Positions 9,577 to 27,700 of a stretch of 64,000 bases of DNA are shown here, piece by piece (position 1 is the first letter of the stretch; every line of letters begins with the position of its first letter). The notes under the pieces are model-generated. The model was not told the origin of the DNA. It searched no databases and saw only the letters and a program-made list of their open reading frames with translations. Position numbers and translations under genes: made by a program. Source of the DNA: Candidatus Saccharimonadota bacterium. Lineage in GTDB: Bacteria > Patescibacteriota > Saccharimonadia > CAILAD01 > BJGX01. The DNA lies in NCBI GenBank assembly GCA_016191105.1, contig JACPPH010000006.1:32670-96669 (forward strand), given 5' to 3'.

Positions 9577-9681
9577 ATTGCTCTCCCTGTCGATTTGTGG
9601 GTGCGGTGGAAAGATCTTGGCAATTATGCTACTTTTGGCTAAAAAATGCAAGCATATGGAGGGGTTAAAATGACAATTGGA

Positions 9682-13193: not shown

Positions 13194-13303
13194 GCTTTGG
13201 CTTCTATTATCCCGATTTTTGGCCGGTTTGGCCAGCCCCAATCTGTAAATACACCACAAAAAGCTTGTGTTTTCGAGGGTTTTGTAGTATAGTCTTACAT
13301 CTA

Positions 13304-13696
13304 GGGGCTGACTAGCTTCGACATTGAATCTTGAAATATACCTGCAGGCCGGGTTGGAATGCACGTTAGCCGTTCCGCCAAACCTTAAGTGGCAAAACAC
13401 TTATGAGCAAACTGGTAAACGCTTTGCGCGTTGACAGCTTTGCACCAGCTTACGCTTAACCCGTGTAAGCCGCTGATTGTTCGACATCAGATAGAACCTG
13501 ACGCGTCAACCATCTGATTGCTTTCCGGATAGCCCCTTCATATCTGGAATCAAGCCAAAGATAGGGGAAGCATGTGCTTGTTTTGTTGGTTTTCTTAGAT
13601 AGCACAGCCTTCTAAAACACATCAAAGCTAACTACGCTTGTAGACGGTATATTGAAAGCTCGATGGACGAGGGTGCGATTCCCTCCAGCTCCACCA
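13304..13696 (+). ncRNA. ssrA: Transfer-messenger RNA (tmRNA, ssrA)
   Basis: 5' GGGGCTG pairs with 3' CAGCTCC, including the G3-U wobble expected of an alanine acceptor stem. The 3' end GGACGAGGGTGCGATTCCCTCCAGCTCCACCA matches the T-arm plus CCA of tmRNA. The ~390-nt length fits. An internal reading frame ends ...GCT TAC GCT TAA. Confidence 0.8.
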
Positions 13697-15226
13697 ACAG
13701 GAACTTTCAGAATTTTTTGAGCCAGACGAAAGGACTGCCTCGCGGCTTCGCCGCTCGGCTAAGCCGCTTTGCGCAAGGCGCAAAGCGGCAGAATCCCACG
13801 GCTCGCCAAACGAAACGGAAACGGATTTGTCCAAAAGCATGGGGTTCGTTCCGATCTTTTGGACAAATACCTTGATTTCCCCGAAACTCTCGCTCTGCGA
13901 GAGTTTTTCGGCTTTATTCGCGTCTAAAATCCACGCTCGCAAGGGTTGGAGCCAATTCTTTCCCGTTCGTCCAAAATCCTCCAAATCGTTCGCAAGAGAA
14001 ACTTTTTGCTTCAAAAGTTCTTCTTTTTTGGCGAGATAGTTTTCTTTGGGAATGTCGCCGTCAATGTAGGCGGAAACGAGCTTGTCTAGTTTCTCTTGCG
14101 TATCAGAAAGTTTGGATTTGAGATTTTGGACGAAAGATTGCGATGAGTGGATATCTTCTCTTTGCCATTCGTCTACTTGCTTTAGCATTTTCTCTGTCCA
14201 CTCATCGCAAATAGCAACGCTTTTGAGCTGTGCCTTCAGTTGCGCGGCAAGATTGCTTTCTTGCACATATTTTTGTGAACACACGCCTTTCTTTTTAGTG
14301 CAACGATAGTAGCGATATATTCCGCCGCACTTGCCGCGCGAAAATTGCGCCGTGATCGCCGAGCCGCACTCTCCGCAAGTAAGCAGTCCGGTAAATGGAA
14401 AATCGTGGCGTTGTTTTGATTTGCGGGGTTTGGCACGGCGCAATAAGACATTCTGCACGGCTTCAAAAAGCGTTGCGGAAAGAATTGGCTCAAAGCGTCC
14501 CTCGTGATATTCGCCCTTATGCTTCACCAAACCTAAATATGCTTGATTGGTGAGCATTCGCGATATGGACGCTTTGGCAAGTGGCGTTCGGTGCCGAGTT
14601 TCCAAACCAAGTTCAGCCAAAAACTCCGCCATAGTTTCCAATGTATGCGTTCCTTTGGCGTATTCCTCAAACGCACGGACAATTACTTTGGATAATGTCG
14701 GGTGCGGTTCAATGGTGCGCGTTTTCGGATTATTCACATAACCAAAGGGCGCTTTGGTCAGCCACTCTCCGCGGCGGAGTTTTTGGCGGATACCGCGATT
14801 GATATTCTCCACGAGATTATCGCTGTAATATTTGGATTGACCGAACGCCACTTGCAACATGAACAATCCTTGCGGCGTGGGCTCAAACCAAAATGTCGGA
14901 AAGCGCAAAGAAACGATTTTTTGCGTGTCCACGAGATAAATCACTTTGCCGCCGTCCACAGAATTACGCGCCAACCTGTCGGGGTGCCATGCGAGTATTC
15001 CCACGCCGTCCATTTTTTCAATCTCGCTTATCATGGCGGCAAACATTTCTCGCCCCGGTTTCTTTGCGCTTTTCGCCTCTGTAAATTCTTGGAGAATTTC
15101 CACATTTTCTCTGCGCGCATATTCTCGTAGCTCAAAGAGTTGAGCTTCAATACTCATAATTTGGTGGTCGTCATCCTCCGTTGATTTCCGAGCGTAGAGA
15201 AAATATTTTGGTTTGAGCATATTCAT
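13628..15226 (-). CDS. Large serine recombinase (resolvase/invertase catalytic domain, recombinase domain, zinc ribbon and coiled coil)
   Basis: N-terminal YARKSTEDD...SIEAQ catalytic serine motif, a central recombinase domain and a zinc ribbon CGECG...C..C. 532 aa. The 3' end of the ORF runs through IR-A and overlaps the tmRNA 3' end. Confidence 0.9.
   Translation of the reverse strand: MNMLKPKYFLYARKSTEDDDHQIMSIEAQLFELREYARRENVEILQEFTEAKSAKKPGREMFAAMISEIEKMDGVGILAWHPDRLARNSVDGGKVIYLVDTQKIVSLRFPTFWFEPTPQGLFMLQVAFGQSKYYSDNLVENINRGIRQKLRRGEWLTKAPFGYVNNPKTRTIEPHPTLSKVIVRAFEEYAKGTHTLETMAEFLAELGLETRHRTPLAKASISRMLTNQAYLGLVKHKGEYHEGRFEPILSATLFEAVQNVLLRRAKPRKSKQRHDFPFTGLLTCGECGSAITAQFSRGKCGGIYRYYRCTKKKGVCSQKYVQESNLAAQLKAQLKSVAICDEWTEKMLKQVDEWQREDIHSSQSFVQNLKSKLSDTQEKLDKLVSAYIDGDIPKENYLAKKEELLKQKVSLANDLEDFGRTGKNWLQPLRAWILDANKAEKLSQSESFGEIKVFVQKIGTNPMLLDKSVSVSFGEPWDSAALRLAQSGLAERRSREAVLSSGSKNSESSCWWSWRESHPRPSSFQYTVYKRS
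13691..13822. repeat. IR-A left copy (132 bp, GC-rich). It begins with the terminal CCACCA of the tmRNA.
   Basis: It is the reverse complement of 15254-15385 with 1 mismatch in 132 bp. It contains an internal perfect palindrome gccgctttgcgc..gcgcaaagcggc. Confidence 0.9.
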
Positions 15227-15253
15227 ATTTGAATTATTTTAGACGCGAATAAA

Positions 15254-15385
15254 GGTTTCCGTTTCGTTTGGCGAGCCGTGGGATTTTGCCGCTTTGCGCC
15301 TTGCGCAAAGCGGCTTAGCCGAGCGGCGAAGCCGCGAGGCAGTCCTTTCGTCTGGCTCAAAAAATTCTGAAAGTTCCTGTTGGTG
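15254..15385. repeat. IR-A right copy (inverted relative to 13691-13822)
   Basis: 131 of 132 bp identical to the reverse complement. Confidence 0.9.
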
Positions 15386-15386
15386 G

Positions 15387-15520
15387 GATATTCTAAACTT
15401 TGCGCGAAACTATTTTGAAGGGAACTAGCCCGCCTCCGCTTCGCTCCGGCGGAACGCTCGGGCGCGGCGGAATTCCCCCCACACCCCCCTTCCGCCGCGC
15501 CCTCGCTTTGAAAGCCGCCG
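15387..15520. repeat. IR-B left copy (~134 bp, GC-rich). It starts 1 nt after IR-A right.
   Basis: It is the reverse complement of ~18625-18760. Confidence 0.85.
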
Positions 15521-15681
15521 CGCAGAAAATTCAGAAAAGAAAAGTGGTGTCGTGTTTGCCCCGCCCACCCATGCGCACACGACATCAATTTTGCTCCCCG
15601 AAACTACTGTAGCATAATTGGTCGCCATAGACTAATTGTATAACATCTGCTAAAATTCTTGCAAGAGCGATAATTTCCTTT

Positions 15682-15885
15682 ATGGCGAACGAAATTACAA
15701 AATTCGGTAAAAAGGTCAAAGAAATACGCTTGAAAAAGCGAATGTCGCAAGGCGACATCGCAAGAATTTTGGGCGTTCATAGGAGCTATATCAGTGGCCT
15801 AGAGCGCGGTATTCGCAACCCATCTCTTTTAACGGTTCAAAAAGTGGCTAAAGCGCTAAAAGTGAACGCAAAAGATTTAATATAA
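15682..15885 (+). CDS. XRE-family helix-turn-helix transcriptional regulator
   Basis: MSQGDIARILGVHRSYISGLERGIRNPSLLTVQKVAKAL is a classic HTH_XRE sequence. Confidence 0.85.
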   Translation: MANEITKFGKKVKEIRLKKRMSQGDIARILGVHRSYISGLERGIRNPSLLTVQKVAKALKVNAKDLI

Positions 15886-15902
15886 AGCTTTACCCTCGGC
15901 AT

Positions 15903-16679
15903 ATGAAAACGAAACTGAAGAAACTGAAGATCGGAATATGGACGTTTATTGTTGTGGCGCTTTTAGTTGCGGCAAAATTTCTGATTCACGCCTGGGGGCT
16001 CGAATACTTCTCGCTTAACGCCCTCTTTACGAGCGCGATCGCGGGAGCGATCTTCATCATGGGTTTCCTGCTTGCTGGAATTATGGCCGATTATAAGGAG
16101 GCGGAAAAAATTCCGGTGGAGCTTCGTTCGTCTCTTGAGAATATTTGGGAGGAGGGAAAGTTCTTCAGCCGTGATAAAAGAGAGTTCAATCTCTCAAAAC
16201 TTAATGACACCTTACTCTCAATAGTCCGGAATTTCTTTAAAGGCCTCGGGCACGAGGGCGACCACTACCGGCTCGATCCGTGCGTTGCGTCAGTCAACGA
16301 GCTTTCGGAGTCGTTTGGACAAATGGAAAAGCTTGGCATGCCACCCAACTATATCGTCCGGCTCGAGGGCGAGCAGGCCTCGGTACGCCGCCAGGTGCTG
16401 CGTGTCTATCATATCCAACGCACGCAATTCCTGCCTTCGGCACACATACTTGCAGAATCCCTCGCGCTCGGAATGGTGTTCCTGCTCCTCTTTGTCAAAA
16501 CGGAAGGATCGCCGGAGTCTATCGTGCTATTCGGATTCATATCGTATCTGTTCCTCTACGTCCGGCAACTCATTCGCGTTCTTGAGAAGCCGTTCAGGCA
16601 GGGCGATAATACGCTCGACGACGTGAGCCTATTTCTCTTGAAAAAGTTTGAGAAGGAATTGTCAGGACATACGGCATGA
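15903..16679 (+). CDS. Integral membrane protein, hypothetical
   Basis: Two N-terminal and two C-terminal hydrophobic helices. 258 aa. Confidence 0.45.
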   Translation: MKTKLKKLKIGIWTFIVVALLVAAKFLIHAWGLEYFSLNALFTSAIAGAIFIMGFLLAGIMADYKEAEKIPVELRSSLENIWEEGKFFSRDKREFNLSKLNDTLLSIVRNFFKGLGHEGDHYRLDPCVASVNELSESFGQMEKLGMPPNYIVRLEGEQASVRRQVLRVYHIQRTQFLPSAHILAESLALGMVFLLLFVKTEGSPESIVLFGFISYLFLYVRQLIRVLEKPFRQGDNTLDDVSLFLLKKFEKELSGHTA

Positions 16680-16698
16680 TTTGCGAGTTGTGCGTTTT

Positions 16699-18579
16699 AT
16701 GAAAATTGCAAACGACCAAAAGAAAAGTAATCACCTGGAATGGATACTGACGGCGATTGCCGCCGGCACCTTCGTCGCGGGAATTTTTTTCAGTGTAATC
16801 AAATTGCCTCTGGCAGACTGGTTTTATTATATATCCTTGCTAGCTGGTGGGTTGCCAGTGGCAAGAGCGGCGACACGAACTCTCCTCCGGCGGAAAATAT
16901 CAATTAATGTACTGGTAACCATCGCAGCTATCGGAGCGCTGTATCTTGGACAAATCGCCGAGGCGGCGGCAGTGATGTTTTTCTTTGCTTTGGCGGAATC
17001 ATTTGAAAAATTTGGCAAAGCGCGTTCGCAAAAAGCTATAGCCGCACTGCTGGAGAGATCGCCGAAACTCGCCCGCCTGCAGGATGGCCGAGAAGTCGCG
17101 GTCGAAAAGGTTGGCGTCGGCGAAACCATAAAAATTCTGCCCGGCGACCTTATCCCTCTGGACGGGATAGTCAGCGGAGGCGACTCCGCAGTCGATGAAG
17201 CGGCTATTACCGGTGAAAGCGTCCCGAAGGAAAAGTATGCGGGACAAACGGTATTTGCCGGCACTATGAACGAAAACGGCTATCTGGAAGTCAGAGTTAC
17301 GAAAACCGCTTCCAATACCACACTTTCTAAAATAATTGTGCTTATCCAGCAGGCGCAAAAGTCCAAGCCTGAAATGCAGGAATTTCTGGACAGGTTTGCC
17401 AGCTTCTATATTCCAGCCGCTCTAGCTCTCGCGGCGCTTGTGGTTATTGTGCCGACCGTGTTTTTCGGACAGCCGTTTAGTCCCTGGCTTACCACGGCCC
17501 TGATTTTACTGGTTTTAGCCTGCCCGGATGCGCTGGTGGTGTCGGCTCCTGTGGCAGTGGCTGCCGCCATGGGCGGAGCTTCGCGCAGAGGAGTATTAAT
17601 AAAGGGCGGCAAATTTCTAGAGTCTTTAAGCAAGGTTAAAGCGTTTGCATTTGATAAGACCAAGACGCTTACTGAAGGGAGTTTGAAAGTGGCCGAAGTC
17701 ATAACTATGCATGGAGCAAGTGAGGAAGAAGTTTTGTCTGATGCCGCAGGACTAGAAAAATTCTCATCTCATCCATTGGCGGCTACCATTCAAAAATATG
17801 CTGCCGACAAGGGCGTCTCCGTTCATGATATGGAAGATTTCAAAAACATTCCCGGACGTGGAGGCTTGGCTAATTGCATGGTTTGTCCAACAAAAGATCA
17901 TGCCATTGGTAATTTGCAACATATCGGCGCAAGTATCAAGGTATGCAAGGATGTTTTGAAGGAAGTTGAGAGAATGGAATCGCTTGGCATGACAACGGTC
18001 ATTGTCAGCGAAGGCCCCAAAGTGATAGGGATCATAGGCATCACTGACCGCCTGCGCCAAGAATCTAAAAACGTTATCACCTCGCTTAATTCGCTTGGAG
18101 TCACACCGGTTATGCTTACGGGCGATAATGAACGGGCCGCCCGTCATATAGCGGAGCAAATAGGAATTAACGAAGTTCATGCGGCCTTGCTTCCTGATCA
18201 AAAAGCCGAACTGGTGAGAGTATTGCAGCAAAGGTATGGAAAAGTCGCCATGGTGGGAGACGGCGTAAATGATGCGCCATCTTTGGCGCGGGCTGATGTA
18301 GGCATAGCGATGGGCGGAGGCGGGTCGGATGTTGCAATCGAGACAGCTGATGTCACTTTGATGAACGATGCCCTAGGCACTATTCCTTACCTGCTTAGAT
18401 TAGGACGCCAAACCTTCAGCGCAGTGAAGCAGAATGTATATGGCTCGCTTGCAGTAAAGGGTGTGATCCTTCTGCTCGGCTTATTTGGTCTGGTGCGGCT
18501 TGATGTGGCTGTGGCAGTTGATGCGGGCGCAGCCATAGTGGTTATATTGAATGGCCTACGATTGTTTAATGCGAAGTAA
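16699..18579 (+). CDS. P1B-type (heavy-metal) P-type ATPase without an N-terminal HMA domain, with variant motifs
   Basis: TGES, CPD (where CPC is usual), DKTKTLTEG (where DKTGT is usual), GDGVNDAPSL, and a transmembrane core like CadA/ZntA. I chose the internal ATG at 16699. Confidence 0.8.
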   Translation: MKIANDQKKSNHLEWILTAIAAGTFVAGIFFSVIKLPLADWFYYISLLAGGLPVARAATRTLLRRKISINVLVTIAAIGALYLGQIAEAAAVMFFFALAESFEKFGKARSQKAIAALLERSPKLARLQDGREVAVEKVGVGETIKILPGDLIPLDGIVSGGDSAVDEAAITGESVPKEKYAGQTVFAGTMNENGYLEVRVTKTASNTTLSKIIVLIQQAQKSKPEMQEFLDRFASFYIPAALALAALVVIVPTVFFGQPFSPWLTTALILLVLACPDALVVSAPVAVAAAMGGASRRGVLIKGGKFLESLSKVKAFAFDKTKTLTEGSLKVAEVITMHGASEEEVLSDAAGLEKFSSHPLAATIQKYAADKGVSVHDMEDFKNIPGRGGLANCMVCPTKDHAIGNLQHIGASIKVCKDVLKEVERMESLGMTTVIVSEGPKVIGIIGITDRLRQESKNVITSLNSLGVTPVMLTGDNERAARHIAEQIGINEVHAALLPDQKAELVRVLQQRYGKVAMVGDGVNDAPSLARADVGIAMGGGGSDVAIETADVTLMNDALGTIPYLLRLGRQTFSAVKQNVYGSLAVKGVILLLGLFGLVRLDVAVAVDAGAAIVVILNGLRLFNAK

Positions 18580-18624
18580 ATACCAAAATGAATTTGCGGC
18601 GTGCCAGCTTCGCTGGCCTGAATG

Positions 18625-18760
18625 GCGGCGGCTTTCAAAGCGAGGGCGCGGCGGAAGGGGGGTGTGGGGGGAATTCCGCCGCGCCCGAGCGTTCCGCCGG
18701 AGCGAAGCGGAGGCGGGCTAGTTCCCTTCAAAATAGTTTCGCGCAAAGTTTAGAATATAC
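18625..18760. repeat. IR-B right copy (inverted)
   Basis: Reverse complement of 15387-15520. Confidence 0.85.
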
Positions 18761-18812
18761 CCCTCCGGAGCTTCGCAGATATTGCTTGCAAAGCCCAAAA
18801 GGGGGGCGGTGG

Positions 18813-19712
18813 TCACGATTGGAGGGCCGTGGCCAGGTTGGAGGCGAGGTTGCGGATGGCCTGCTTGCCGTCGTCGGTGATGATCGGGATCGACCGCGAG
18901 TAGCTGCTCTCGGTTGCCAGACCGATGTTGAAGTTGATCTTCGGTACCTCGTACTCGACTGGCTTTTCAGGTTCGTGACGGTTCTTGTTCTCCCGGAGTC
19001 CGGTCATCATCGAGGCGTGGGTCTGCCAGGCCGGCATCTCGTCCTCGAGCTGCCATGGCTGGACGATGCCGCCGAGGCTCAACGCCACTTCGTAGTCGCC
19101 GACCTGGAATCGGGGGCGACCGAAGTGACGCAGGGGGCCTCCGCGCTCTTCCGTCATGATCTGCTCGACGATCTGCTCACTCGTGCACTCGGCTCCGATC
19201 GTCGTCAGGTTGATGCTGATGACCTCGAAGTCGAAGGTGACAAGCTCGCTGTCGGGCTCGACCTGTGCGGTGACGTCGATGTGCTGAACTGCGCGGTCGA
19301 TCTGGAGGGACTCGGCGAGCCCCACCTCGACCTGGTCACCGACGTAGGCGGCACTGAGATGCAGCAAGAACCAGGTGTCGTCCAGCTTCTGGACCTCGAC
19401 GGTGGTCTTGAAGAACCGACCAACGCCGTCGTAGTCGTAGTGGTAGCTGTACGAGCCCACCGCTTCGATGCCGGCGTCGATCTTGGTGAAGAGGTCGGTC
19501 AGGAACCGATCGTCTCCACCATACATCTCCTCGACGAGCGGCTTCAACAACGCGATCCCGACGCCACCATCCTGGATCAGCTTCTTCTCGGTGGCATTCG
19601 ACCCGGCCGTCTGGCCAGAGGCGAAGAGTCGGAGTGCGTTGCGAACGGCCTCGATCCCTTCGAGTGGGATGCCGCTCAGGTATTCCGTGGTATTGACGGT
19701 GAGGAAGCTCAT
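18813..19712 (-). CDS. Hypothetical protein, GC-rich (~60%), foreign-looking
   Basis: Ribosome-binding site ggaaggag 8 nt upstream of the ATG. Varied amino-acid composition. The antisense 391-aa ORF is an artefact. Confidence 0.55.
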   Translation of the reverse strand: MSFLTVNTTEYLSGIPLEGIEAVRNALRLFASGQTAGSNATEKKLIQDGGVGIALLKPLVEEMYGGDDRFLTDLFTKIDAGIEAVGSYSYHYDYDGVGRFFKTTVEVQKLDDTWFLLHLSAAYVGDQVEVGLAESLQIDRAVQHIDVTAQVEPDSELVTFDFEVISINLTTIGAECTSEQIVEQIMTEERGGPLRHFGRPRFQVGDYEVALSLGGIVQPWQLEDEMPAWQTHASMMTGLRENKNRHEPEKPVEYEVPKINFNIGLATESSYSRSIPIITDDGKQAIRNLASNLATALQS

Positions 19713-19830
19713 GGCTTCACTCCTTCCTGTAGGTGTGGGGTGCGACCGCTTTCACGGCCCTAGACTTACTAGAGATGCTGACAATGTTACCATAAGTAAT
19801 TTAGTTTGTCAATACCCTGGTGTTAATCCC

Positions 19831-20286
19831 TTATCGGAGTACTGGTGATCCGTTGAGCTTCCATCTGTTGTATTCGGGAGTTAGTATTTCTCTCCAGTAG
19901 GCAGCGTTTTCGAGTATTAGGTGTAAATTATTGCGTATTCGCTCCACCATGGGAGACTCAGAGTCATTTTCTGGGTCTTTTTTGGTACTTGCTAACCTGA
20001 TAAGTGGACTAATTTGCTGGGTGTAAACTTTTCCATCTTTTTTAACTACAAAATCCTGTGGAAATACCAATTGTTTACACCTCAAGCCTATCATCGTGTG
20101 GTTCAACTGCCAGTACTTTTTAGTCATGTTGTTGATAAAGCCGATGGAGAAGTGTACAAACTCCGATAGATCCTTTTCTACGTTCTTGACCCCATTAATC
20201 TCTTTTTTGTTTTCAACAAGGCTCTGTTTTACCTTTTCGATTGCTTGTTTAGTATAGTCAGCGAGTTCGGGACTATTTGCCAACAA
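19831..20286 (-). CDS. Hypothetical protein (AT-rich module)
   Basis: 151-aa ORF, ~38% GC, downstream of the Fic gene and on the same strand. Confidence 0.4.
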   Translation of the reverse strand: MLANSPELADYTKQAIEKVKQSLVENKKEINGVKNVEKDLSEFVHFSIGFINNMTKKYWQLNHTMIGLRCKQLVFPQDFVVKKDGKVYTQQISPLIRLASTKKDPENDSESPMVERIRNNLHLILENAAYWREILTPEYNRWKLNGSPVLR

Positions 20287-20291
20287 GGTTA

Positions 20292-20477
20292 TTAGCCTAC
20301 TTTCTGTTCCTGAAGCTCAATAGACCGCGTCTCGAGCCGTTTAAGATACTCAAGCTTAGTTTGTTGTCTCTGACGCCAAACTGTATCAAGGGTGGTCTCT
20401 AGATCCGTACAGCCCAAGGAGAAGGCTTCATCCAGCTTATCTAAGACCGATTTAGTCATAACACTGGGGCTAGTCAT
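20292..20477 (-). CDS. Small hypothetical protein (61 aa) between the Fic gene and the 151-aa ORF
   Basis: ORF only. It might be a Fic-associated partner. Confidence 0.3.
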   Translation of the reverse strand: MTSPSVMTKSVLDKLDEAFSLGCTDLETTLDTVWRQRQQTKLEYLKRLETRSIELQEQKVG

Positions 20478-20587
20478 AGTACCTACGGTATACTCCTGTA
20501 TAGCGTACTACGGGCAAATTTGAAGACATCCAAAGAGACTCCTTTATCTTGTAAGTAGGGGCGGTAGGTGATAACTAACCCAACCTT

Positions 20588-21709
20588 CTAGCTTATTAGA
20601 GTTAGTAGTTTTGGAAAATAGTAGACAGTGGCACCCTTTGTGCCTCTAACAGATCTTATGGAATCGATCACCCTATCTTCTAATAATCTGTTAACCAAGG
20701 AACTGGCAGTAATTCTAGAGATTTTCAGTGTCTTTATTACATGGGAGATTTGGAATACTGGTGTTTCAAATATCATGTTAACCATTCTGTTCATATTGGG
20801 GGATTGTGAACCTTCGTACCTATCAAGCAATATCTCATTTAGCTTGGTTATCTTTTCTACAAGACTGATCGATATGCCACACTGTTCCTTTAAGGATTCC
20901 AGGAAGAATATTATCCAAGGGGTGATGTCGCCAGTTGTGTCAACATAGTGAAGCATCTGACGGTATTCCTTTGCTTTTTTCTCGAAGTATTCACTGGTGT
21001 AAAGGACGGGGGCAGAAAGTGCACCCTGGTATTGAAGAAGGGCAGGGATTAACATTCTACCAATTCTTCCATTCCCATCCTCAAATGGGTGGATAGCCTC
21101 AAACTGATAGTGGAAGATTGCAGTTTTTATCAAGGGCGTCTCATCTGTGGAGTTAAAATAGTCAACCAGATTATCCATATATCCTTCCACAGCGGTGTAG
21201 AAAGGTGGAACATAGGTAGCTTTTTGTATGGAAGTGCTCTTGTTTTTACCTATCCAAACATCTTTTGACCTAAATTTACCAAGAGCTCCGTTATGAGGGG
21301 TTCTATGTAAGAGAACATAGTGAAGTTGACGTATCTGGTATTTTGAAATGCCGCCCTTTTGATCTTTTATCTTCATAGCAAGACGCATCGCATCACGATA
21401 ATTTGCAACTACGATGGTATCTTGTTGGGGCGCTTTGCCTGTTGCGTCAAGAATGAAAACATCCTTAGAATCGGTGATTGTACCTTCTATCTTGGAGCTT
21501 AGAGAAGCCTCTCTTGTTAGTAGGGGCTTTATCAAGTGTTCTGCATTAGATATTTTACTGTGTGCAGTTTGGAGCATACCTAATGCATACGAAGCTTCCG
21601 CTAACTGCCGGTAGTACTTGCTGGGATCAAGATTTTTTAAGGGTAAGTATGATGGTTGACCGTATTTTACATTCATGATATATAACTTTCTATGAATATT
21701 ATACATCAT
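20588..21709 (-). CDS. Fic/Doc-family protein (AMPylase-type toxin-like), with a putative N-terminal auto-inhibitory motif
   Basis: HPFEDGNGRIGRMLIPALL matches HPFx[DE]GNGRxxR. SSKIEG matches [ST]xxxE[GN] near residue 70. AT-rich promoter upstream at 21710-21760. Confidence 0.85.
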   Translation of the reverse strand: MMYNIHRKLYIMNVKYGQPSYLPLKNLDPSKYYRQLAEASYALGMLQTAHSKISNAEHLIKPLLTREASLSSKIEGTITDSKDVFILDATGKAPQQDTIVVANYRDAMRLAMKIKDQKGGISKYQIRQLHYVLLHRTPHNGALGKFRSKDVWIGKNKSTSIQKATYVPPFYTAVEGYMDNLVDYFNSTDETPLIKTAIFHYQFEAIHPFEDGNGRIGRMLIPALLQYQGALSAPVLYTSEYFEKKAKEYRQMLHYVDTTGDITPWIIFFLESLKEQCGISISLVEKITKLNEILLDRYEGSQSPNMNRMVNMIFETPVFQISHVIKTLKISRITASSLVNRLLEDRVIDSIRSVRGTKGATVYYFPKLLTLIS

Positions 21710-22024
21710 ACATTATGTTTGTATATACACTATATATCTTTTCTTGGAGAAGGTACTATGTGGGTGTCATTCCCTCAACGGAGTAGAGCAGATCTGTCGA
21801 GCTTATACCTCTCATAATCCGAGTACAGCAGTTCTCTCCAGTAGGTTATGTTTTCAGATAAAGCTTGCCAACTTTTTGCTATCCTCTCCACCAAAGAAAG
21901 ATCAGATTAAACCTGGTCTCTTTTTTGATTGACAAATATACTTTAATCTTATAAAATAGTGGCGTTCTTGAATCTGTCGTCTGGTGAACCATTCACCACA
22001 GATTCAGAAGAAAGCAGGTCTACA

Positions 22025-22261
22025 ATGGGTGCACGAAATGCAGCCGACGACCCAACCAAGAAACCCCTCCACGCCTACCTGAGCAAAAAAGCTCACGATG
22101 CTTGGCAGGAGGCGAGCGATGAAGCTGGTGTGAGCATGTCCGCTCTTCTAGAGGCCATTGGCCTTAGTTGGGCGGAAAAGCCACCGACAGAAGACGCTGA
22201 GTGGTTCGACGCCATCGCAGGCCGGGCGCGCAAAATCGATACCTTTCGTCGCCGGCGCTAG
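22025..22261 (+). CDS. Hypothetical small protein, GC-rich
   Basis: MGARNAADDPTKKPLHAYLSKKAHDAWQEASDEAGVSMSALLEAIGL… may be a ribbon-helix-helix-type or DNA-binding small protein. Confidence 0.35.
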   Translation: MGARNAADDPTKKPLHAYLSKKAHDAWQEASDEAGVSMSALLEAIGLSWAEKPPTEDAEWFDAIAGRARKIDTFRRRR

Positions 22262-22273
22262 AGGAGGAGCTCA

Positions 22274-22599
22274 TGGCAACCACGCTATTGTTCAAGGCCG
22301 GCCAGCAAGTAATCTGGAACCCGACACTCGATGGCAACAAACAGCTTGCAGAGCTCCAGCGCGCATACAGCGCAGGGCCGTTCAGGGTGGTTGAGGTGCG
22401 TTCTTGCGGTCAGTCACCTTGCAACTGTGGCAGCCCACCTGGCTACCCGCATAGTTCGAGCTGCCCCAAGGGACTCGGTCGGTTGCTCGGTCACCCCCAG
22501 TGGCTAATCTTGACCGATCTGCAAGGCCGACCCATCAACAGCTGCTTCCACGACATGGGTCCGGTGCAACTTTCGGGCCGCTGGTTCGCAGCAACCTGA
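22274..22599 (+). CDS. Hypothetical protein, GC-rich, cysteine-containing
   Basis: ATG at 22274 preceded by GGAGGAG. 108 aa. Confidence 0.4.
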
Positions 22600-22633
22600 G
22601 CCAAACACAACTACAAGGAGGGAATACCCACGG

Positions 22634-22680
22634 AAAAGACCACGCGGTCCACCAGTCCGTGGGTCTTTTCGTTTATAGAA
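22634..22680 (+). terminator. Rho-independent terminator
   Basis: aagaccacgcggtccaccagtccgtgggtcttttcgttta. Confidence 0.5.
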
Positions 22681-22870
22681 CAAGCCGTTGTGGTACTGAC
22701 CTCTCTATATCTGCACAGCCTTGCTTTTAAAAGAATAGACCGACTAAGGCCTTGCTATAAGCTAGTAGTCATTTTTTTTGTACAGATTGACTTTTTAACT
22801 ACAAAGGACAACAATAATAGCAACTTGTCCGAAAGGCGGACTTGTAGCTCCAGGAAGGTGGTTAGCGACC

Positions 22871-23251
22871 ATGTCCAAGATAGCAACCGAAAGTCGGGTG
22901 CAGAAGGCAAAGCCTTCGCGCCACGGCGTGCCAACCAGGGAGAGCATGATCGGCGACATCGTCGACGAACTGGGATGCAGCCTCGACGACGCGAACCTCA
23001 CCGTCACGATCATCGACCGGATCGGCGCGAAGCTGCGAGCCGGCCAGAGCCGGGTGCAGATCGACACCTGGGCCGAGTTCAACGCTGTGCATCCTTTGCT
23101 CAACCAGATCATGCCGCCCGGGCAACGAGCGCCCCAGGCCGGCACTCTGCACGCCAAGGCCAACGCCTACGCCAGCCGTGACAAGCAAGTCGCACTGGTG
23201 CACGTCGGCAGCAAGAACTGCATCATCATCGCCGACGACGTCGTCGTCTGA
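22871..23251 (+). CDS. Hypothetical protein, GC-rich
   Basis: Ribosome-binding site aggaaggtgg before the ATG. 126 aa. Confidence 0.45.
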   Translation: MSKIATESRVQKAKPSRHGVPTRESMIGDIVDELGCSLDDANLTVTIIDRIGAKLRAGQSRVQIDTWAEFNAVHPLLNQIMPPGQRAPQAGTLHAKANAYASRDKQVALVHVGSKNCIIIADDVVV

Positions 23252-23426
23252 TCGGCAACATCTCGATCATCTAGCGCTTCGCCGCGCGAATGGGGCATCC
23301 CTCTACGCCCCCGACAGAGCCCTCGCTCCCGCCGGGGGCTTTGTCGTTACATTTGTTATAATAATGGCTGAGATCTATAGGGCGGCCAACAGGCCGCTTA
23401 TCCGTTCCAAGACAAGGGAGAGGGAC

Positions 23427-23996
23427 ATGACCCGACCATATCGAATCCAGGTCGTATCTGTAGGTGTGGGCAAATCGCAGGTGATTGGCGCCAAGCCAAG
23501 CGGAGAGGAATGGTCTTCGGCCATTCACAAGGAGCCTGTCAGCTCTCGTAGCCTATGGGTTGATCGCAACGGCCTCGAAGGGGATACCCAGGTAGACAGG
23601 AGGGTGCACGGTGGTGACGACAAGGCAGTGTATGCATATCCTAGCGAGCACCTAAAGGCGTGGGCTGAGGAAGTCGGTCGTGAGATCACCGCGGCTGAGC
23701 TAGGAGTGAACCTGCTAGTAGAGGGTGTGACAGAAGAGACTGCGAGGATCGACGACAAGTGGTGGTGGAACGGTGTAAGGCTGATCATCACCAAGCCCCG
23801 TCAGCCCTGCAACACTCTGAGACATCACACCGGGATTCAAGACATCCGGCTGAGGATGAAAAACAACGGTTTCTGTGGCTGGTATCTGAGGGTGCTGCAG
23901 CCGGGCAGGGGTCTCACCAGCGGTGACATCTCAGTTACCCCTGGTTATGGGCCGACAGTTGCCGAGGTCTTTGCTGGAAAGACCTTCGAAACCTAA
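23427..23996 (+). CDS. MOSC-domain protein (YiiM-like)
   Basis: Ribosome-binding site aagggagaggga, then ATG at 23427. The central region has …VHGGDDKAVYAY… and a conserved Cys (QPCNTL) typical of MOSC. Confidence 0.75.
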   Translation: MTRPYRIQVVSVGVGKSQVIGAKPSGEEWSSAIHKEPVSSRSLWVDRNGLEGDTQVDRRVHGGDDKAVYAYPSEHLKAWAEEVGREITAAELGVNLLVEGVTEETARIDDKWWWNGVRLIITKPRQPCNTLRHHTGIQDIRLRMKNNGFCGWYLRVLQPGRGLTSGDISVTPGYGPTVAEVFAGKTFET

Positions 23997-24178
23997 GGAC
24001 ACCACGCAGGCGCGTAGAGGTCTTCACAAGCCGTCAGAAGGGTGACAACAGTCGCTTTTCGGGCGGCTGTTGTTATTTATAGAGGCTTTGCATATAATAT
24101 ACGAGACAACGGGCGGGCAAATCAGCCCGCTTTTTGCGAATTGACCCCACAAGTGAATCGAAAGAAGGAGGGCCTGTC

Positions 24179-24637
24179 ATGGCCAAACCAAAAGTAGCAG
24201 TCCTGATGGGCTCGCCCAACGACATGGACAAGATGAAGCCGGCGGCCGACACACTGGAGCGCTTCGGACTTGAGGCCGATGTGCGGGTGCTGTCCGCTCA
24301 CCGTAACCCCGATCAGGTGGTGGAGCTGGTGAGCACCGCACGTGAGAACGGCTACGCGGCACTCATCTGCGGTGCTGGCATGGCGGCTCATCTGGCCGGC
24401 GTATGCGCCGCCCACACCACCTTGCCGGTGGTGGGGGTCCCCTTGAGCGGTGGTGCTCTGAACGGCGTCGATGCGCTCTACAGCACTGTACAGATGCCCA
24501 AGGGGATCCCGGTGGCCACCGTGGCCATCGATGGTGCCATGAACGCCGCCCTACTGGTGGCGGAAATGCTGGCCATCACCGACGAGACCCTGCAGGACAC
24601 TCTCTACTTGTATCGCCAAGAGCTCGCCAACAAGTAG
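24179..24637 (+). CDS. purE: N5-carboxyaminoimidazole ribonucleotide mutase (class I PurE)
   Basis: VAVLMGSPNDMDKM…AHRNPD…GAGMAAHLAG. 152 aa. Ribosome-binding site gaaggag. ~65% GC. Confidence 0.9.
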   Translation: MAKPKVAVLMGSPNDMDKMKPAADTLERFGLEADVRVLSAHRNPDQVVELVSTARENGYAALICGAGMAAHLAGVCAAHTTLPVVGVPLSGGALNGVDALYSTVQMPKGIPVATVAIDGAMNAALLVAEMLAITDETLQDTLYLYRQELANK

Positions 24638-24667
24638 TCCGACCCCAACCCAACGGAAGGAAATTCC

Positions 24668-25561
24668 ATGAACACTATCGATTTGCCGCTGCTGTCCTCG
24701 AACAAGGTGCGGGATGTCTACGACGCCGGCGACGGGAGGCTTCTGCTGGTCACCAGCGATCGCCTCAGTGCCTTCGACGTTGTGATGAATCAGCAGGTGA
24801 AGTACAAGGGCATAGTGCTCAACCTGATGTCGGAGTGGTGGTTCAACTTCTTCGGTGATACGCCCAACCACATGATCACCACCGATCTGGCCAAGATGCC
24901 ACCAGGAGTGCCACGCGTTCCTGAGCTCAAGGGTCGAGTGATGCTTTGCCGCAAGGCCGAGATGCTGCCCATCGAATGCATCGTGCGTGGCTACATCACT
25001 GGTTCGGGCTGGAAGGACTACAAGCGCGACGGTGCAGTCTGTGGTCACCAACTGCCCGAGGGGCTGCTGGAGTCGCAGAAGCTGCCCGAGACGCTGTTCA
25101 CGCCCTCTACCAAGTTCGAAGCCAAGGATCGCAACATCGAACTCGACGAGGCAATGTCGCTCACAGAGGAGCGATTCTCGGGGAGAGGGGAGAGCTTGGT
25201 GTTGTCGGCACGCACCATGACCACCAACCTCTACGAGGAGGGTGCGGAGTGGGCGGCCGAACGCGGCATCATCATCGCCGACACCAAGTTCGAGGTCGGG
25301 GTGGTAGACGGTGAGCTGACCGTCTGCGACGAGATCCTGACTCCTGATAGCAGCCGGTTCTGGCCGGCTGATCAATGGGTGCCAGGCACAACGCCACCTA
25401 GCTTCGACAAGCAGCCTGTGCGTGACCACCTGGATGCCTCAGACTGGGACAAGGAACCTCCACCACCCGATCTTCCAGATGAGGTGGTGGAGGCAACCAG
25501 CGGCCGATACGTCGAGGCATACAAGCGGATCACCGGCAGCACGCTCCCACTGGCCGCCTGA
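24668..25561 (+). CDS. purC: Phosphoribosylaminoimidazole-succinocarboxamide (SAICAR) synthase
   Basis: KVRDVYD…LLVTSDRLSAFDVVM… is typical of PurC. 297 aa. Confidence 0.9.
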   Translation: MNTIDLPLLSSNKVRDVYDAGDGRLLLVTSDRLSAFDVVMNQQVKYKGIVLNLMSEWWFNFFGDTPNHMITTDLAKMPPGVPRVPELKGRVMLCRKAEMLPIECIVRGYITGSGWKDYKRDGAVCGHQLPEGLLESQKLPETLFTPSTKFEAKDRNIELDEAMSLTEERFSGRGESLVLSARTMTTNLYEEGAEWAAERGIIIADTKFEVGVVDGELTVCDEILTPDSSRFWPADQWVPGTTPPSFDKQPVRDHLDASDWDKEPPPPDLPDEVVEATSGRYVEAYKRITGSTLPLAA

Positions 25562-25595
25562 GCCAACAACAGCAATATCGCAAGCAATGGGTCGC

Positions 25596-25645
25596 AAGAC
25601 CCCGAAAAGGACTTCGGAATTTTCCGTCACCCATTTCGGGGTTCT
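25596..25645 (+). terminator. Rho-independent terminator after purC
   Basis: aagaccccgaaaaggacttcggaattttccgtcacccatttcggggttcttttcgttta. Confidence 0.55.
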
Positions 25646-25979
25646 TTTCGTTTAAGCAAAATTTGCTATTGGCATGTCGGCATTTGGCGTTGTGCAAAAA
25701 GTTGGCCAAGGCCAAATAAAATTCGTAGCGTCTAAAAAATTAAATGTAAAAATTGTTAAAAATGTTTTGGGCAAATTTAGTACAGTATAAAAAAAGCAGG
25801 TTAGCGTTTGCCCGGGGGCGTTGCTAACCTGTTGGAAGAGCTTTGTTTTTGTTTTTGAGTAATTTATGTGTGCAGCACTAATACAATAATAGCGCTTATG
25901 CTGAGTACCTGTCAACAACTTTTTTGAACTTTTTTATAAGTTTTTTAATACAAAATTTTATTCGTGCACCCCCCAACAA

Positions 25980-26984
25980 TTATAATTGGCCGTCGCGGGC
26001 GAGTGAGTTGAGCGCCAAGCGCTCAATAAATGCAATTTGAGCCGGCGCAATATTACGCTTTTTGCCACGCCACGTACTCAGCGCTGGTTCTTGCACGGCC
26101 CGTGAATACGAAAAGCTAATTGGCCAAGGCTCTTTGCCGGCCCGGGCAATGGCGTTGAGATCCTCGGTAGCTTGCCGAGGAGTCTGCCCACCAGATAGAA
26201 AGACGATTCCGGCTACCTCCTTGGGCACCCGCTGGCGTAACACCCTTACAGTAGCTTTGGCCACATCTGATGGGCTAGACGGCCTAGAGCTGTCGTGGCC
26301 AGCCAAAACCATACTGGTTTTTAAAATAACACCCTTAAGATCGACCCGATAAGCAATTAACAGATCGAACAGCACTCGCAACACCTGGGAAACCACTTGC
26401 TCGCAGGTTTCTAGGCTGTGATTGCCCTCATATAGCACCTCAGGTTCGACGATTGGCACCATACCGGCCGACTGAACCAAGCAGGCATAGCGAGCCATCT
26501 GGTTGAGATTGGCGTGAATAGCCGCGGCAGTTGGCAGGCGTAATTTAGAGTCTATCTGAAAAGCTGCCCGCCACTTGGTAAAGCGAGCGCCCATTTTGTA
26601 GTATTCGTCGAGGCGTTCGGCCAGGCCATCTAGGCCTTCGGTAATGGTCTCGGGCTCGAAGTTGGTGAAGGGGACTAAGCCTTTGTCGACCTTAATGCCC
26701 ACAGCTATACCTTGCCTTCGCAAATATTTGGTAAACTTAATACCAGAGTTGGTTTTTTGGCGAATGGTCTCGTCGTATAGAATAACTCCACTAATATATT
26801 GTGCGAAGTTAGGTGCAGTAAATAGCAAATGGCGATATCGGCGCCGCATTTCGGGCGAACTGGGTATGCGCAAGGCTGCAAACCGCTTCTCGGCCGACTT
26901 ATTGCTTTCATCGGCTGCCAGCAGGCCCCTAGGGTCGGCCATAAGATCCTTGGCTATCTTGGCTAAATCACTATTAGCGCTCAT
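25980..26984 (-). CDS. fba: Fructose-bisphosphate aldolase, class I
   Basis: GLLAADES…, LKGVILKTSMV (active-site Lys region) and IVFLSGGQ. Confidence 0.85.
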   Translation of the reverse strand: MSANSDLAKIAKDLMADPRGLLAADESNKSAEKRFAALRIPSSPEMRRRYRHLLFTAPNFAQYISGVILYDETIRQKTNSGIKFTKYLRRQGIAVGIKVDKGLVPFTNFEPETITEGLDGLAERLDEYYKMGARFTKWRAAFQIDSKLRLPTAAAIHANLNQMARYACLVQSAGMVPIVEPEVLYEGNHSLETCEQVVSQVLRVLFDLLIAYRVDLKGVILKTSMVLAGHDSSRPSSPSDVAKATVRVLRQRVPKEVAGIVFLSGGQTPRQATEDLNAIARAGKEPWPISFSYSRAVQEPALSTWRGKKRNIAPAQIAFIERLALNSLARDGQL

Positions 26985-27083: not shown

Positions 27084-27533
27084 TTACTTTGACTGCCCAA
27101 CTTCACGGTCAGCATCGCGCAGCATATCGTGTTTTTTAATCTGTTGGCGTTTGTCAAACTGCTTCTTGCCACGGCCGGCCCCAAGCTCAACTTTTACCAA
27201 ACCGCGCTCAACACCAACGCTTAGTGGCACCACGGCCATGCCACCAGACTGCACTAAGCCTTGCAGCTCATTGAGCTCACGCCTATGCAGCAGAATTTTG
27301 CGACTTTGGGTGGGCTCGTAGTCTTTGAGCCCAGTAGCGTGTTTATAGGGGGTGATGTGGGCATTGGTAAGCCAAGCTTCGCCGCCGCGAAAGCTTACAA
27401 AGCTACCTTTGAGGCTGATAGCCCCAGATTTTACACTTTTAACTTCGTGACCAGCCAATACTAAGCCAGCCAAGACCGTTTTAGCGATGTCGTAGTCATA
27501 GCGGGCCCGTTTGTTGCTGGCTACAATCTTCAT
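27084..27533 (-). CDS. smpB: SsrA-binding protein SmpB
   Basis: NKRARYDYDI…LAGHEVKSVK…GEAWLTNAHITPY…SRKILLHRRELNEL…GKKQFDKRQ. I chose the ATG at 27533. Confidence 0.9.
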   Translation of the reverse strand: MKIVASNKRARYDYDIAKTVLAGLVLAGHEVKSVKSGAISLKGSFVSFRGGEAWLTNAHITPYKHATGLKDYEPTQSRKILLHRRELNELQGLVQSGGMAVVPLSVGVERGLVKVELGAGRGKKQFDKRQQIKKHDMLRDADREVGQSK

Positions 27534-27700
27534 AAGCTCAATTATAGCGTATAAACCCTGCAATCAGATACAACAACTTCTGCATTTGGCGCATTACTGT
27601 GTTGCTCACTACGCTACTCCTTTGGCGTACGATTTTGTACGCTGCCGTCCGTTGCTTACTCGCACCTTGTACTGCACTCAAATCAGAAGTCTTGTATAAT

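Follow-up and report, generated by a model that had tools for sequence, protein, structure and literature searches.

We analysed a 64-kb stretch of DNA, hereafter the window, whose proteins include 100% identical matches to NCBI MBI2798327.1 and MBI2798323.1 of a 'Candidatus Saccharibacteria bacterium' (contig of 125,602 bp), which settles in favor of a Saccharibacteria MAG the backbone supposed in a preliminary description of the locus. The genome comes from groundwater. Between the tmRNA gene and the backbone anchors encoding a class I fructose-bisphosphate aldolase (FBA) and SmpB lie the following features:

13304..13696, +, tmRNA (ssrA; ARAGORN; Rfam RF00023, 106.7 bits)
13691..18758, no strand, module M1, large-serine-recombinase element, GC 49.4% (backbone-like)
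13691-13822 / 15255-15386, inverted repeats A/A′ in M1
13628/13823-15226, −, large serine recombinase (LSR; Pfam Resolvase, Recombinase and Zn_ribbon_recom)
15388-15521 / 18625-18758, inverted repeats B/B′ in M1
15682-15885, HTH gene in M1
15903-16679, 258-aa protein in M1
16648-18579, P-type ATPase in M1 (Pfam E1-E2 ATPase)
18759..19800, −, module M2, GC 60.6%, holding hyp299
18813-19712, −, hyp299, 299 aa, GC3 85%, no assigned function
19801..21887, −, module M3, GC 40.4%
19819-19902 / 21763-21845, direct repeat of 84 nt in M3
19831-20286, hyp151, possible gene in M3
20588-21709, Fic/DOC protein in M3 (Pfam Fic_N and Fic)
about 21775-21895, C-terminal fragment of a hyp151 paralog in M3, present in contig L002 too
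21888..21957, +, ancestral tmRNA-end remnant: CCACCA, tmRNA terminator hairpin, then a TTGACA-17-TAAAAT promoter for hyp100
22025-22261, +, hyp100/78, module M4a
22273-22599, +, hyp132/108, module M4a
22633-22674, +, intrinsic terminator after hyp132, M4a (22025..22674)
22787-22815, +, promoter-like site, module M4b (22787..23346)
22871-23251, +, hyp126, GC3 84%, module M4b
23312-23346, +, hairpin with 14-bp stem, module M4b, conserved in L002
23427-23996, +, MOSC-domain protein (PF03473), 189-210 aa depending on start codon
24047-24078, terminator after the MOSC gene
24070..25653, +, purE-purC operon
24070-24098, +, its promoter, TTGTTA-17-TATAAT
24111-24135, +, its conserved leader hairpin
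24179-24637, +, purE (PF00731; TIGR01162)
24668-25561, +, purC (PF01259; NF010568, TIGR00081)
25598-25653, +, its terminator
25785..25915, −, strongly conserved noncoding element downstream of FBA, candidate small RNA with its own promoter and terminator; the backbone resumes here
25980-26984, −, FBA, backbone anchor (Pfam)
27084-27563, −, SmpB, backbone anchor (Pfam)

Mosaic structure of the tmRNA-FBA interval

The interval 18813-25645 had been described as one block of 60-65% GC. Against a backbone of 46.6% (700-nt windows: sd 3.2, maximum 57.1) its mean is 52.7%, with local 300-nt maxima at 64-66%; the interval is a mosaic of hyp299, the Fic module and the hyp100-to-purC module, with sharp GC steps at 18.6, 19.8, 22.0 and 25.65 kb. 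From 60.6% over 18759-19800, GC falls below the backbone to 40.4% in the Fic module (19801-21887) and stands at 57.7% over 21958-22675 and 59.2% over 22871-25654, on either side of an AT-rich promoter gap of 41.5% (22676-22870); the hyp100-hyp132-hyp126-MOSC-purE-purC module has 58% overall. The contrast between island and backbone is clearer in GC3 (hyp299 85%, hyp126 84%, purE 78%, purC 76.5%, hyp132 68%, MOSC 62%, hyp100 56%, compared with 45-57% in backbone genes and 40% in Fic) than in plain GC. The gene content first listed (hypotheticals, MOSC, purE, purC and the nearby tmRNA) is borne out by Pfam, NCBIfam and ARAGORN.

The insertion point of the island array is the tmRNA 3′ CCACCA, which foreign DNA, beginning at 13691, overlaps. 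The attL of the recombinase element lies at the tmRNA CCACCAA, and its attR, seen in Logan contig L163, consists of B′, CCCACCAA and a copy of the tmRNA terminator. Copies of CCACCA plus terminator delimit both this element (in L163) and the hyp299/Fic segment (at 21888), the latter copy being orthologous to positions 7949-8010 of L002. As had been proposed, the region from tmRNA to FBA-SmpB is a variable hotspot: the window and the related contigs L002 and L083 combine identical flanks with three different cargoes, that of L083 lacking purE-purC. The idea of delivery by the visible integration machinery fails, since the element stops at 18758 and two tmRNA-end/terminator copies precede purE-purC, whose module starts 8.3 kb past the start of the island at tmRNA. 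A site-specific recombinase was found in M1 and none in M2-M4, and no repeat of the tmRNA end was found distal to purC, the sole match in a search for its 18 nt (≤3 mismatches) being a chance one inside purE.

Genomic islands stack at the 3′ end of tmRNA and tRNA genes, such as CP4-57 in E. coli and VPI in Vibrio, and these integration sites were reportedly surveyed by Williams in 2002-2003. The locus resembles such islands in having foreign DNA directly downstream of ssrA, copies of the tmRNA 3′ end, a recombinase gene abutting the tmRNA, cargo that varies among relatives and atypical composition. It differs in its large serine recombinase, where a tyrosine integrase is usual, in a repeat of merely 7 nt of tmRNA plus terminator, and in a purE-purC module that lies distal to the ancestral terminator with no att-type repeat and no integrase at its bounds.

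For hyp299 an actinobacterial origin is not demonstrable, given that the best of its about 156 distant homologs has 40% identity and that the amino acid composition of these homologs is unlike that of high-GC organisms; it has no Pfam match, and its AlphaFold2 model (pLDDT 91) gave no fold match. The lineage-specific small proteins hyp100 and hyp132 (46% and 43-49% identity to L002 ORFs) have just two members in 5.8 billion proteins, and hyp132 shows a dN/dS of about 0.31. The coding status of hyp126 is doubtful because its identity to the L002 ORF at the same position is 29% and dN about equals dS. A prophage or phage-borne auxiliary metabolic genes were considered and rejected: the hypotheticals, hyp299 included, have no PHROG match, and hyp299 and the recombinase have no relatives in IMG/VR.

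Acidimicrobiia ancestry and purifying selection of the purine genes

PurE passes the TIGR01162 model for class I N5-CAIR mutases (177.4 bits; cut-off 149.6) and PurC passes both NF010568 (374 versus 251 bits) and TIGR00081 (218 versus 190). Beyond these equivalog cut-offs, the pair is like the Acidimicrobiia pur operon in the PurE loops and motifs GSxxD, SAHR and AGMAAHLAG and in many invariant PurC alignment columns. With a dN/dS of 0.14 for purE (window versus L164) and 0.25-0.30 for purC, both genes are, by this measure, under purifying selection. Unlike the Acidimicrobiia order purD-purE-purB-purC-purQ, in which purB sits between purE and purC, the two genes here lie 30 nt apart with neither purB nor purK, and the clade is one from which the pathway is reportedly missing (PMC12592800). 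Pfam, run on 30 further ORFs of the 64-kb window, the largest of the remainder, revealed no additional pur gene, neither purK, purB nor purH, and the statement that purE and purC occur alone holds within it.

PurE has 75-76% identity to its counterparts in Actinomycetota/Acidimicrobiales MAGs; the named best matches of PurC are Acidimicrobiales/Iamia (62-65% identity), with Acidimicrobiales, Iamiaceae and Aquihabitans as the best GTDB species among the matches listed; and the named top matches of the MOSC protein are Acidimicrobiales in four of four cases (46-50% identity; named best matches only). In neighbor-joining trees of a limited sample, whose long Saccharibacteria branches make long-branch attraction possible, PurE of the window and L164 group together (98% bootstrap) and are nested within Acidimicrobiia (96%). 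The PurC gene tree, a check that the preliminary description had suggested, unites the three Saccharibacteria-type contigs (93%) and joins them to an Acidimicrobiia-like clade (99%), with 45% for 'nested within' versus 'sister to'. Judged by these sequence comparisons, PurE, PurC and the MOSC protein are of Acidimicrobiia-like (Actinomycetota) origin, in keeping with the actinobacterial type first ascribed to them. GC3 of the island is 76-85% in the window and 72-82% in L002, as against 94-98% for purC in four of five Acidimicrobiia genes and the Actinomycetota MAG L010 (L007, 85%); the island genes are partly ameliorated, about half-way in GC3.

The MOSC-domain protein shares with YiiM-type reductases the domain and the conserved cysteine motif PRQPC, and its best NCBIfam match is PRK11536. 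It falls far below the YiiM equivalog NF008577 (104 bits versus a cut-off of 294), and we rejected an identity as YiiM 6-hydroxyaminopurine reductase in favor of a MOSC-domain protein only. It is also shorter than its homologs (189-210 versus about 216 aa), with 87-89% of the query covered in most matches. MOSC proteins require molybdenum cofactor, for which no source is evident here. The gene is present in L164, at about 40% identity to the window, and absent from L002; with the YiiM score, this leaves the notion of a purine-themed cargo weak.

Shared synteny in related contigs and the history of the module

L163 (SRR12113392) is 100% identical to window positions 18759-25291, including all internal GC transitions, and differs by 52 nt at 18758/18759. 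L002 (SRR31418086) reads GT4-GT4-tmRNA...hyp100-hyp132-ORF-purE-purC-FBA-SmpB-ArgRS, where the high-GC island again sits in a backbone of 45-50% GC, and L164 reads MOSC-purE-purC-terminator-sRNA-FBA, its contig reaching only the FBA end; on the right (25291-25980), the window's own junction is supported by homologous contigs only. FBA and SmpB are 84% and 81% identical to those of L002 and 63% and 71% to those of L083. The conserved candidate small RNA, which matched no Rfam family, was exposed as a by-product of studying the locus.

In the window, L002 and L164 alike, purE and purC are joined by 30-31 nt, under a shared promoter/leader and with shared terminators; the module is old because position, purB-less junction, promoter and terminators are common to all three. 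Between the window and L002, dS is 1.1-2.9 for the backbone and 0.86 for purC. The L002 'PurE' has only 29-37% identity to any PurE (31% to that of the window) and scores 80.1 bits against TIGR01162, below the 149.6 cut-off; at least this gene has been replaced or has decayed, which weakens a strictly single-event history.

We posit, with good though not full confidence, that purE-purC-MOSC is an old Acidimicrobiia-derived module in a variable tmRNA-FBA region that grew by one insertion after another. The earliest module, lying furthest inside (about 21958-25654), would have brought purE, purC and MOSC from an Acidimicrobiia-like donor, the likely source being a purD-purE-purB-purC segment that has since lost purB, and was probably acquired once, by an ancestor of a Saccharibacteria subclade. 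Domestication would have followed, with AT-rich sigma-70-type promoters, a conserved leader, intrinsic terminators and half-way ameliorated GC3. Later insertions at the tmRNA 3′ CCACCA, every one of which left behind a duplicate of tmRNA end plus terminator, would have added the hyp299, hyp151 and Fic segment and, most recently, the 5.07-kb large-serine-recombinase element with its P-type ATPase, displacing the purE-purC module 8 kb from the tmRNA.

The sharp GC steps, and the 52-nt difference at 18758/18759 with odd inverted repeats nearby, are what a misassembly or chimeric bin wrongly joining high-GC Acidimicrobiia stretches to a Saccharibacteria contig could produce. Such an error, raised as an alternative in the preliminary description, is effectively refuted and extremely improbable: the independent L163 repeats 6.5 kb of high-low-high GC at 100% identity, the junction of purE-purC with the Saccharibacteria FBA/sRNA flank recurs in L002 and L164, contigs obtained from other samples, AT-rich promoters and terminators are common to the Saccharibacteria copies, and the genes have a GC3 of 76-85% rather than 94-98% and an identity of only 50-76% to any Acidimicrobiia gene. 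We give still less credence to the view that the genes are native to Patescibacteria, passed on vertically, and owe their high GC to constraints specific to these genes. Three lineages do keep the position and regulatory signals, and there is purifying selection, but PurE is nested in Acidimicrobiia, L083 has the same synteny without the genes, no Saccharibacteria appear among the best 80 GTDB PurC loci listed, the GC3 excess extends to the unrelated neighbors hyp126 and hyp132, and de novo nucleotide synthesis is reportedly missing in Saccharimonadia (PMC12592800).

The initial proposal, that a tmRNA-targeting recombinase element recently carried all 6.8 kb as one block from host to epibiont, draws on the large serine recombinase right at the tmRNA 3′ end with its recognizable attL, and on the GC3 of hyp299, which suggests that some part is younger. 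We regard it as very unlikely: the element, backbone-like in GC, stops at 18758, where it has a separate attR, two tmRNA-terminator copies and the 40%-GC Fic module intervene, and the nearest donor identity is only 65-76%. Moreover, purE-purC occurs with the same junctions, partly ameliorated, in at least three diverged contigs of the lineage, L002 and L164 having no such element, and purC dS among Saccharibacteria copies (about 0.9) is on the order of backbone divergence. That related Saccharibacteria gained purE-purC DNA at this one hotspot repeatedly, each time from another high-GC donor, is unlikely, though less so. In its favor, no copy has lost its high GC3, the PurE of L002 and that of the window are unrelated in sequence, MOSC is variably present and very divergent, and PurC identity among the Saccharibacteria copies (61-70%) does not exceed that to Acidimicrobiia (65-71%). 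Against it stand PurC monophyly, the common purB-less 30-nt junction with homologous promoter/leader and terminators, and the shared orphan neighbors hyp100/hyp132, found nowhere else; partial amelioration would fit about 0.5 synonymous substitutions per site per lineage.

Donor, host and a possible purine shunt

Extra-phylum gene transfer into Patescibacteria is documented in general, and aquifer members carry genomic islands and acquired nucleotide-metabolism genes such as thyA (PMC12455944); mammal-associated Saccharibacteria acquired an arginine deiminase system (PMC8764695). The present case, a real but fairly ordinary horizontal gene transfer, is like these in placing a small extra-phylum metabolic module under selection, within an island of atypical GC, in a reduced epibiont genome. 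It differs in that the donor can be named (Acidimicrobiia) and that two internal steps of an otherwise absent pathway were gained, which complete or extend no recognizable pathway. The DNA may have come from a physically associated host; for cultured pairs, a study reports no evident transfer between Saccharibacteria and hosts (PMC8406219). The pattern would look no different had free DNA been taken up.

PurE, of the N5-CAIR mutase type, and PurC may form a two-step CAIR-to-SAICAR shunt acting on externally obtained purine intermediates. The partner genes of such a shunt, purK, purB and purH, are absent from the 64-kb window; PurE would depend on N5-CAIR supplied through PurK or high bicarbonate. 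The epibiont would take AIR/CAIR-level intermediates from its host, convert them to SAICAR and pass this onward to retained PurB/PurH-type enzymes. That such an intermediate-salvage shunt works, and that this Saccharibacteria clade from groundwater has Acidimicrobiia as its natural hosts, is a speculative combination that we would not presently bet on.

The locus illustrates island accretion at ssrA in an ultra-small genome. Two internal purine enzymes kept by selection in organisms described as making no nucleotides (PMC12592800) pose a puzzle about what epibionts import. Three genes pointing to one nameable donor lineage provide a testable host hypothesis for an environmental Saccharibacteria clade, and intermediate salvage from Acidimicrobiia hosts, if true, would amount to a novel type of metabolic parasitism, with a host group that is also new.

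Gene order and mosaic composition

The genes considered here, in window coordinates, are as follows (FBA, fructose-bisphosphate aldolase; hyp, ORF without assigned function):

10795-13400 (-), two GT4 glycosyltransferases
13304-13696 (+), tmRNA
13628-15226 (-), large serine recombinase
15682-15885 (+), HTH gene
15903-16679 (+), 258-aa protein
16648-18579 (+), P-type ATPase
18813-19712 (-), hyp299
19831-20286 (-), hyp151
20588-21709 (-), Fic
22025-22261 (+), hyp100
22273-22599 (+), hyp132
22871-23251 (+), hyp126
23427-23996 (+), MOSC
24179-24637 (+), purE
24668-25561 (+), purC
25980-26984 (-), class I FBA
27084-27563 (-), SmpB
27599-29296 (+), ArgRS

PurC and hyp132 are 100% identical to MBI2798327.1 and MBI2798323.1 (locus tag HYX70_03455) of a 'Candidatus Saccharibacteria bacterium' MAG, and MOSC to a MOSC-domain protein on the same 125,602-bp contig. 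The gene identities of purE, purC and MOSC hold, with PurE scoring above the TIGR01162 cut-off and PurC above those of NF010568 and TIGR00081; the MOSC protein falls far under the YiiM equivalog cut-off. That purE and purC stand without the remaining purine biosynthesis is borne out within the window, where none of the 30 other large ORFs is a pur gene. Searches of Pfam, NCBIfam, PHROG and PDB sequences returned no match for hyp100, hyp132 or hyp126, and the single relative of hyp132 among 5.8 billion proteins is its ortholog on L002, a contig of a related Saccharibacterium; its AlphaFold2 model, from an alignment of only two sequences, has a pLDDT of 41. The hyp299 family comprises ~156 distant homologs (best 40% identity), whose amino-acid composition is unlike that of high-GC organisms, and IMG/VR scans gave no relatives of hyp299 or the serine recombinase. 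A 94-nt tRNA-SeC call by ARAGORN (20690-20783, +), antisense within the Fic ORF and without Rfam support, is probably a false positive.

The interval 18813-25645 had been read as one block of 60-65% GC. The compositional anomaly is real and well above the background (backbone GC 46.6%, sd 3.2, 700-nt windows), but it consists of two separate high-GC segments split by a low-GC Fic module, and because of this mosaic the interval as a whole reaches only 52.7%.

GC content of the segments
18759-19800, hyp299 segment, 60.6%
19801-21887, hyp151-Fic segment, 40.4%
21958-22675, hyp100-hyp132 segment, 57.7%
22676-22870, AT-rich gap, 41.5%
22871-25654, hyp126-MOSC-purE-purC segment, 59.2%

GC at third codon positions (GC3, %) is 85 in hyp299, 84 in hyp126, 78 in purE, 76.5 in purC, 68 in hyp132, 62 in MOSC and 56 in hyp100, compared with 45-57 in backbone genes and 40 in Fic.

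Acidimicrobiia ancestry and age of purE-purC

We conclude that purE-purC is an old, domesticated horizontal acquisition from Acidimicrobiia-like bacteria, lodged in an ssrA-linked variable region. The actinobacterial look of purE, purC and MOSC is upheld by their named best matches, which are from Acidimicrobiia/Actinomycetota for all three. After itself, PurC matches at 69% and then ~65%, the named matches all being Acidimicrobiales or Iamia; the best loci listed from GTDB species representatives are Acidimicrobiales (65%), Iamiaceae (63%), Aquihabitans (58%) and then more Acidimicrobiia/Actinomycetota, with no Saccharibacteria among the matches listed. PurE is 75-76% identical to its counterparts from two MAGs, L010 (Actinomycetota) and L003 (Acidimicrobiales), both with the order purD-purE-purB-purC-purQ, and all four named top matches of MOSC are Acidimicrobiales (46-50% identity). 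In neighbour-joining trees, PurE of the window groups with that of the metagenome contig L164 (bootstrap 98%) and the pair nests among Acidimicrobiia (96%); the gene tree called for in the case of purC makes the three Saccharibacteria-type sequences monophyletic (93%) and unites them with an Acidimicrobiia-like clade (99%), a union that does not choose between a nested and a sister position.

A chimeric metagenome bin, named earlier as the other possibility, is contradicted by independent contigs. L163 (Logan assembly, SRR12113392, 6,607 bp) matches window 18759-25291 at 100% identity, from hyp299 across the low-GC Fic module to hyp100 and on to purC, while L002 (Logan SRR31418086, 17.5 kb) and L164 (ENA, 2.5 kb) repeat the purE-purC arrangement with its FBA flank. 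In L002, ComM-GalT-GT4-GT4-tmRNA and a low-GC G5-domain gene precede a high-GC block that comprises the hyp100 (46%) and hyp132 (43-49%) orthologs, an ORF in the corresponding position, a purE-like gene and purC (64%); FBA (84%), SmpB (81%) and ArgRS (75%) come next. L164 carries MOSC (40%), purE (81-83%), purC (69%), the same terminator and the beginning of the FBA flank. In the window, L002 and L164 alike, purE and purC lie 30-31 nt apart with no purB in between, and the promoter and hairpin leader 5' of purE as well as the terminators are homologous. The more distant L083 (FBA 63%, SmpB 71%) retains the frame ArgRS-SmpB-FBA...tmRNA-GT4 with another 3.6-kb cargo and no purE-purC; a JGI metagenome scan with FBA found no near relatives, only L083 and L084 at 62-63% identity. 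The purE-purC stretch is thus neither a chimera nor recent.

Between the window and L002, backbone genes have dS 1.1-2.9 and dN 0.12-0.16, and purC has dS 0.86 and dN 0.26. Both purE and purC evolve under purifying selection (dN/dS 0.14 and 0.25, window against L164). Island-gene GC3 is 72-85% in both lineages, about half-way between the backbone (~50%) and Acidimicrobiia (94-98%), as would be expected if a single acquisition shortly preceded the split of the lineages and each then accumulated ~0.5 synonymous substitutions per site. The high GC3 in both is no bar to a single old acquisition, since the purC dS of ~0.9 is comparable to that of the backbone and fits half-way amelioration. Recombination was likewise rejected as the reason why L164 and L002 share 95% identity in the purC-FBA spacer, as the same element is conserved in the window, L083 and L084.

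Build-up of the array at the tmRNA end

The tmRNA 3' end, ...CAGCTCCACCA, lies at 13696, and foreign DNA starts within CCACCA. A second copy of the tmRNA end and terminator, CCACCAAAGAAAGATCAGATTAAACCTGGTCTCTTTTTTGATTGACAAAT (21888-21937; ortholog at L002 7949), resembles the native tmRNA terminator of L083. As it sits directly 5' of hyp100 in both the window and L002, the ancestral order would have been tmRNA, terminator, hyp100...purC, small RNA, FBA. A later insertion at the tmRNA end would have brought hyp299/hyp151/Fic (18759-21887), bounded by two terminator copies, and the last one the 5.07-kb serine-recombinase element (13691-18758; GC 49.4%, backbone-like); L002 gained another insertion there instead. 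The array is like known tmRNA-adjacent island arrays in structure, but with a serine instead of a tyrosine recombinase. Delivery of purE-purC by the tmRNA integration machinery, as proposed earlier, is disfavored because the recombinase element came last and the module has no integrase or bounding repeat; entry by transformation with host or environmental DNA would be plausible.

The first bases of L163 are the final 21 nt of repeat B', followed by CCCACCA and AAAAGAGATCAGATAGAAACTGGTCTTTTTTTGATACAAATGCGA up to the junction with window 18759. Recombination of an element at CCACCAA with the tmRNA end and terminator would be expected to produce just such an attR. Of this right end of the recombinase element, 52 nt (CCCACCA and the tmRNA terminator copy; L163 22-74) are missing from the NCBI contig at 18758/18759, which reflects either variation within the population or a local misassembly. 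The element has two pairs of 132-134-nt inverted repeats (99-100%), A/A' around the recombinase gene and B/B' around the HTH-DUF-ATPase cargo (13691-13930, 15236-15521, 18625-18758), with 89 extra nt in copy A; these could be invertible segments, a second-element remnant or an assembly artefact. The stretch A'-CCCACCAA(rc)-B, which lies between the start codon of the recombinase and the HTH gene, resembles the element's attP in inverted orientation. Direct repeats of 84 nt (73% identity; 19819-19902 and 21763-21845; L002 7839-8039) cover the hyp151 3' end and a C-terminal paralog fragment bordering on the ancestral CCACCA/terminator. In hyp151-type proteins the motif LVER is coded for by CCTCTCCACCAA read in reverse complement, which suggests an old attachment site inside a hyp151-type gene.

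Predicted regulation and function

A candidate small RNA lies just 3' of FBA (25785-25915, -), with copies at L002 11107-11274, L164 2263-2419, L083 2500-2623 and L084 2072-2204. Its predicted ~90-nt transcript has a near-consensus promoter (TTGACA-18-TATTAT, 25915-25886) and ends in a 9-bp GC-rich hairpin and a run of seven T; identity is 94-96% in L002/L164 and 79-81% in the contigs with FBA proteins of only 62-63% identity. No Rfam riboswitch or sRNA family matches 21850-24200 or 25560-26000, the candidate included. Between the purE promoter and start codon, a GC-rich hairpin with a T-run (24111-24135; L164 ~575-605; L002 ~9400-9425) is conserved in all three purE-purC-bearing contigs, matches no riboswitch family and could be a transcription attenuator.

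The purE and purC genes are intact, keep the catalytic-loop motifs in common with Acidimicrobiia, and have predicted sigma-70-like promoters and terminators. Their products would catalyse N5-CAIR -> CAIR -> SAICAR with intermediates beyond the cell's own synthetic capacity, since Saccharimonadia reportedly have no de novo nucleotide synthesis (PMC12592800; also PMC12455944). Such a shunt would depend on AIR or CAIR being supplied and on PurB/PurH acting downstream, and we consider a working two-step shunt possible but somewhat doubtful; alternatively, the proteins moonlight or the genes are in slow decay. In L002 the purE-like gene (9467-9970) has 29-37% identity to any PurE, insertions and an altered 70s loop (AAALPG for AAHLAG), and falls below the TIGR01162 cut-off, next to a well-conserved purC. 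The notion of a purine-themed cargo is weak, because this gene has diverged past equivalog recognition and MOSC, variable among related contigs, would depend on molybdenum cofactor.

In the window, ComM and GalT are separated by a DAHP synthase gene (PF00793; 8530-9651, -; local GC 52-53%, above the backbone), whereas the syntenic L002 has the two side by side and no such gene. The DAHP synthase and a lone prephenate dehydratase (35257-36105) may be additional cases of acquired, isolated biosynthetic genes.

We found no report of purE or purC in Saccharibacteria in the literature, and the acquisition adds another case to the Patescibacteria metabolic genes from outside the phylum (PMC12455944, PMC8764695). 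Evidence for gene transfer in cultured Saccharibacteria-host pairs has been noted as lacking (PMC8406219). The locus offers two leads: two isolated steps of the purine pathway kept under selection, and Acidimicrobiia as candidate hosts of this Saccharibacteria clade.
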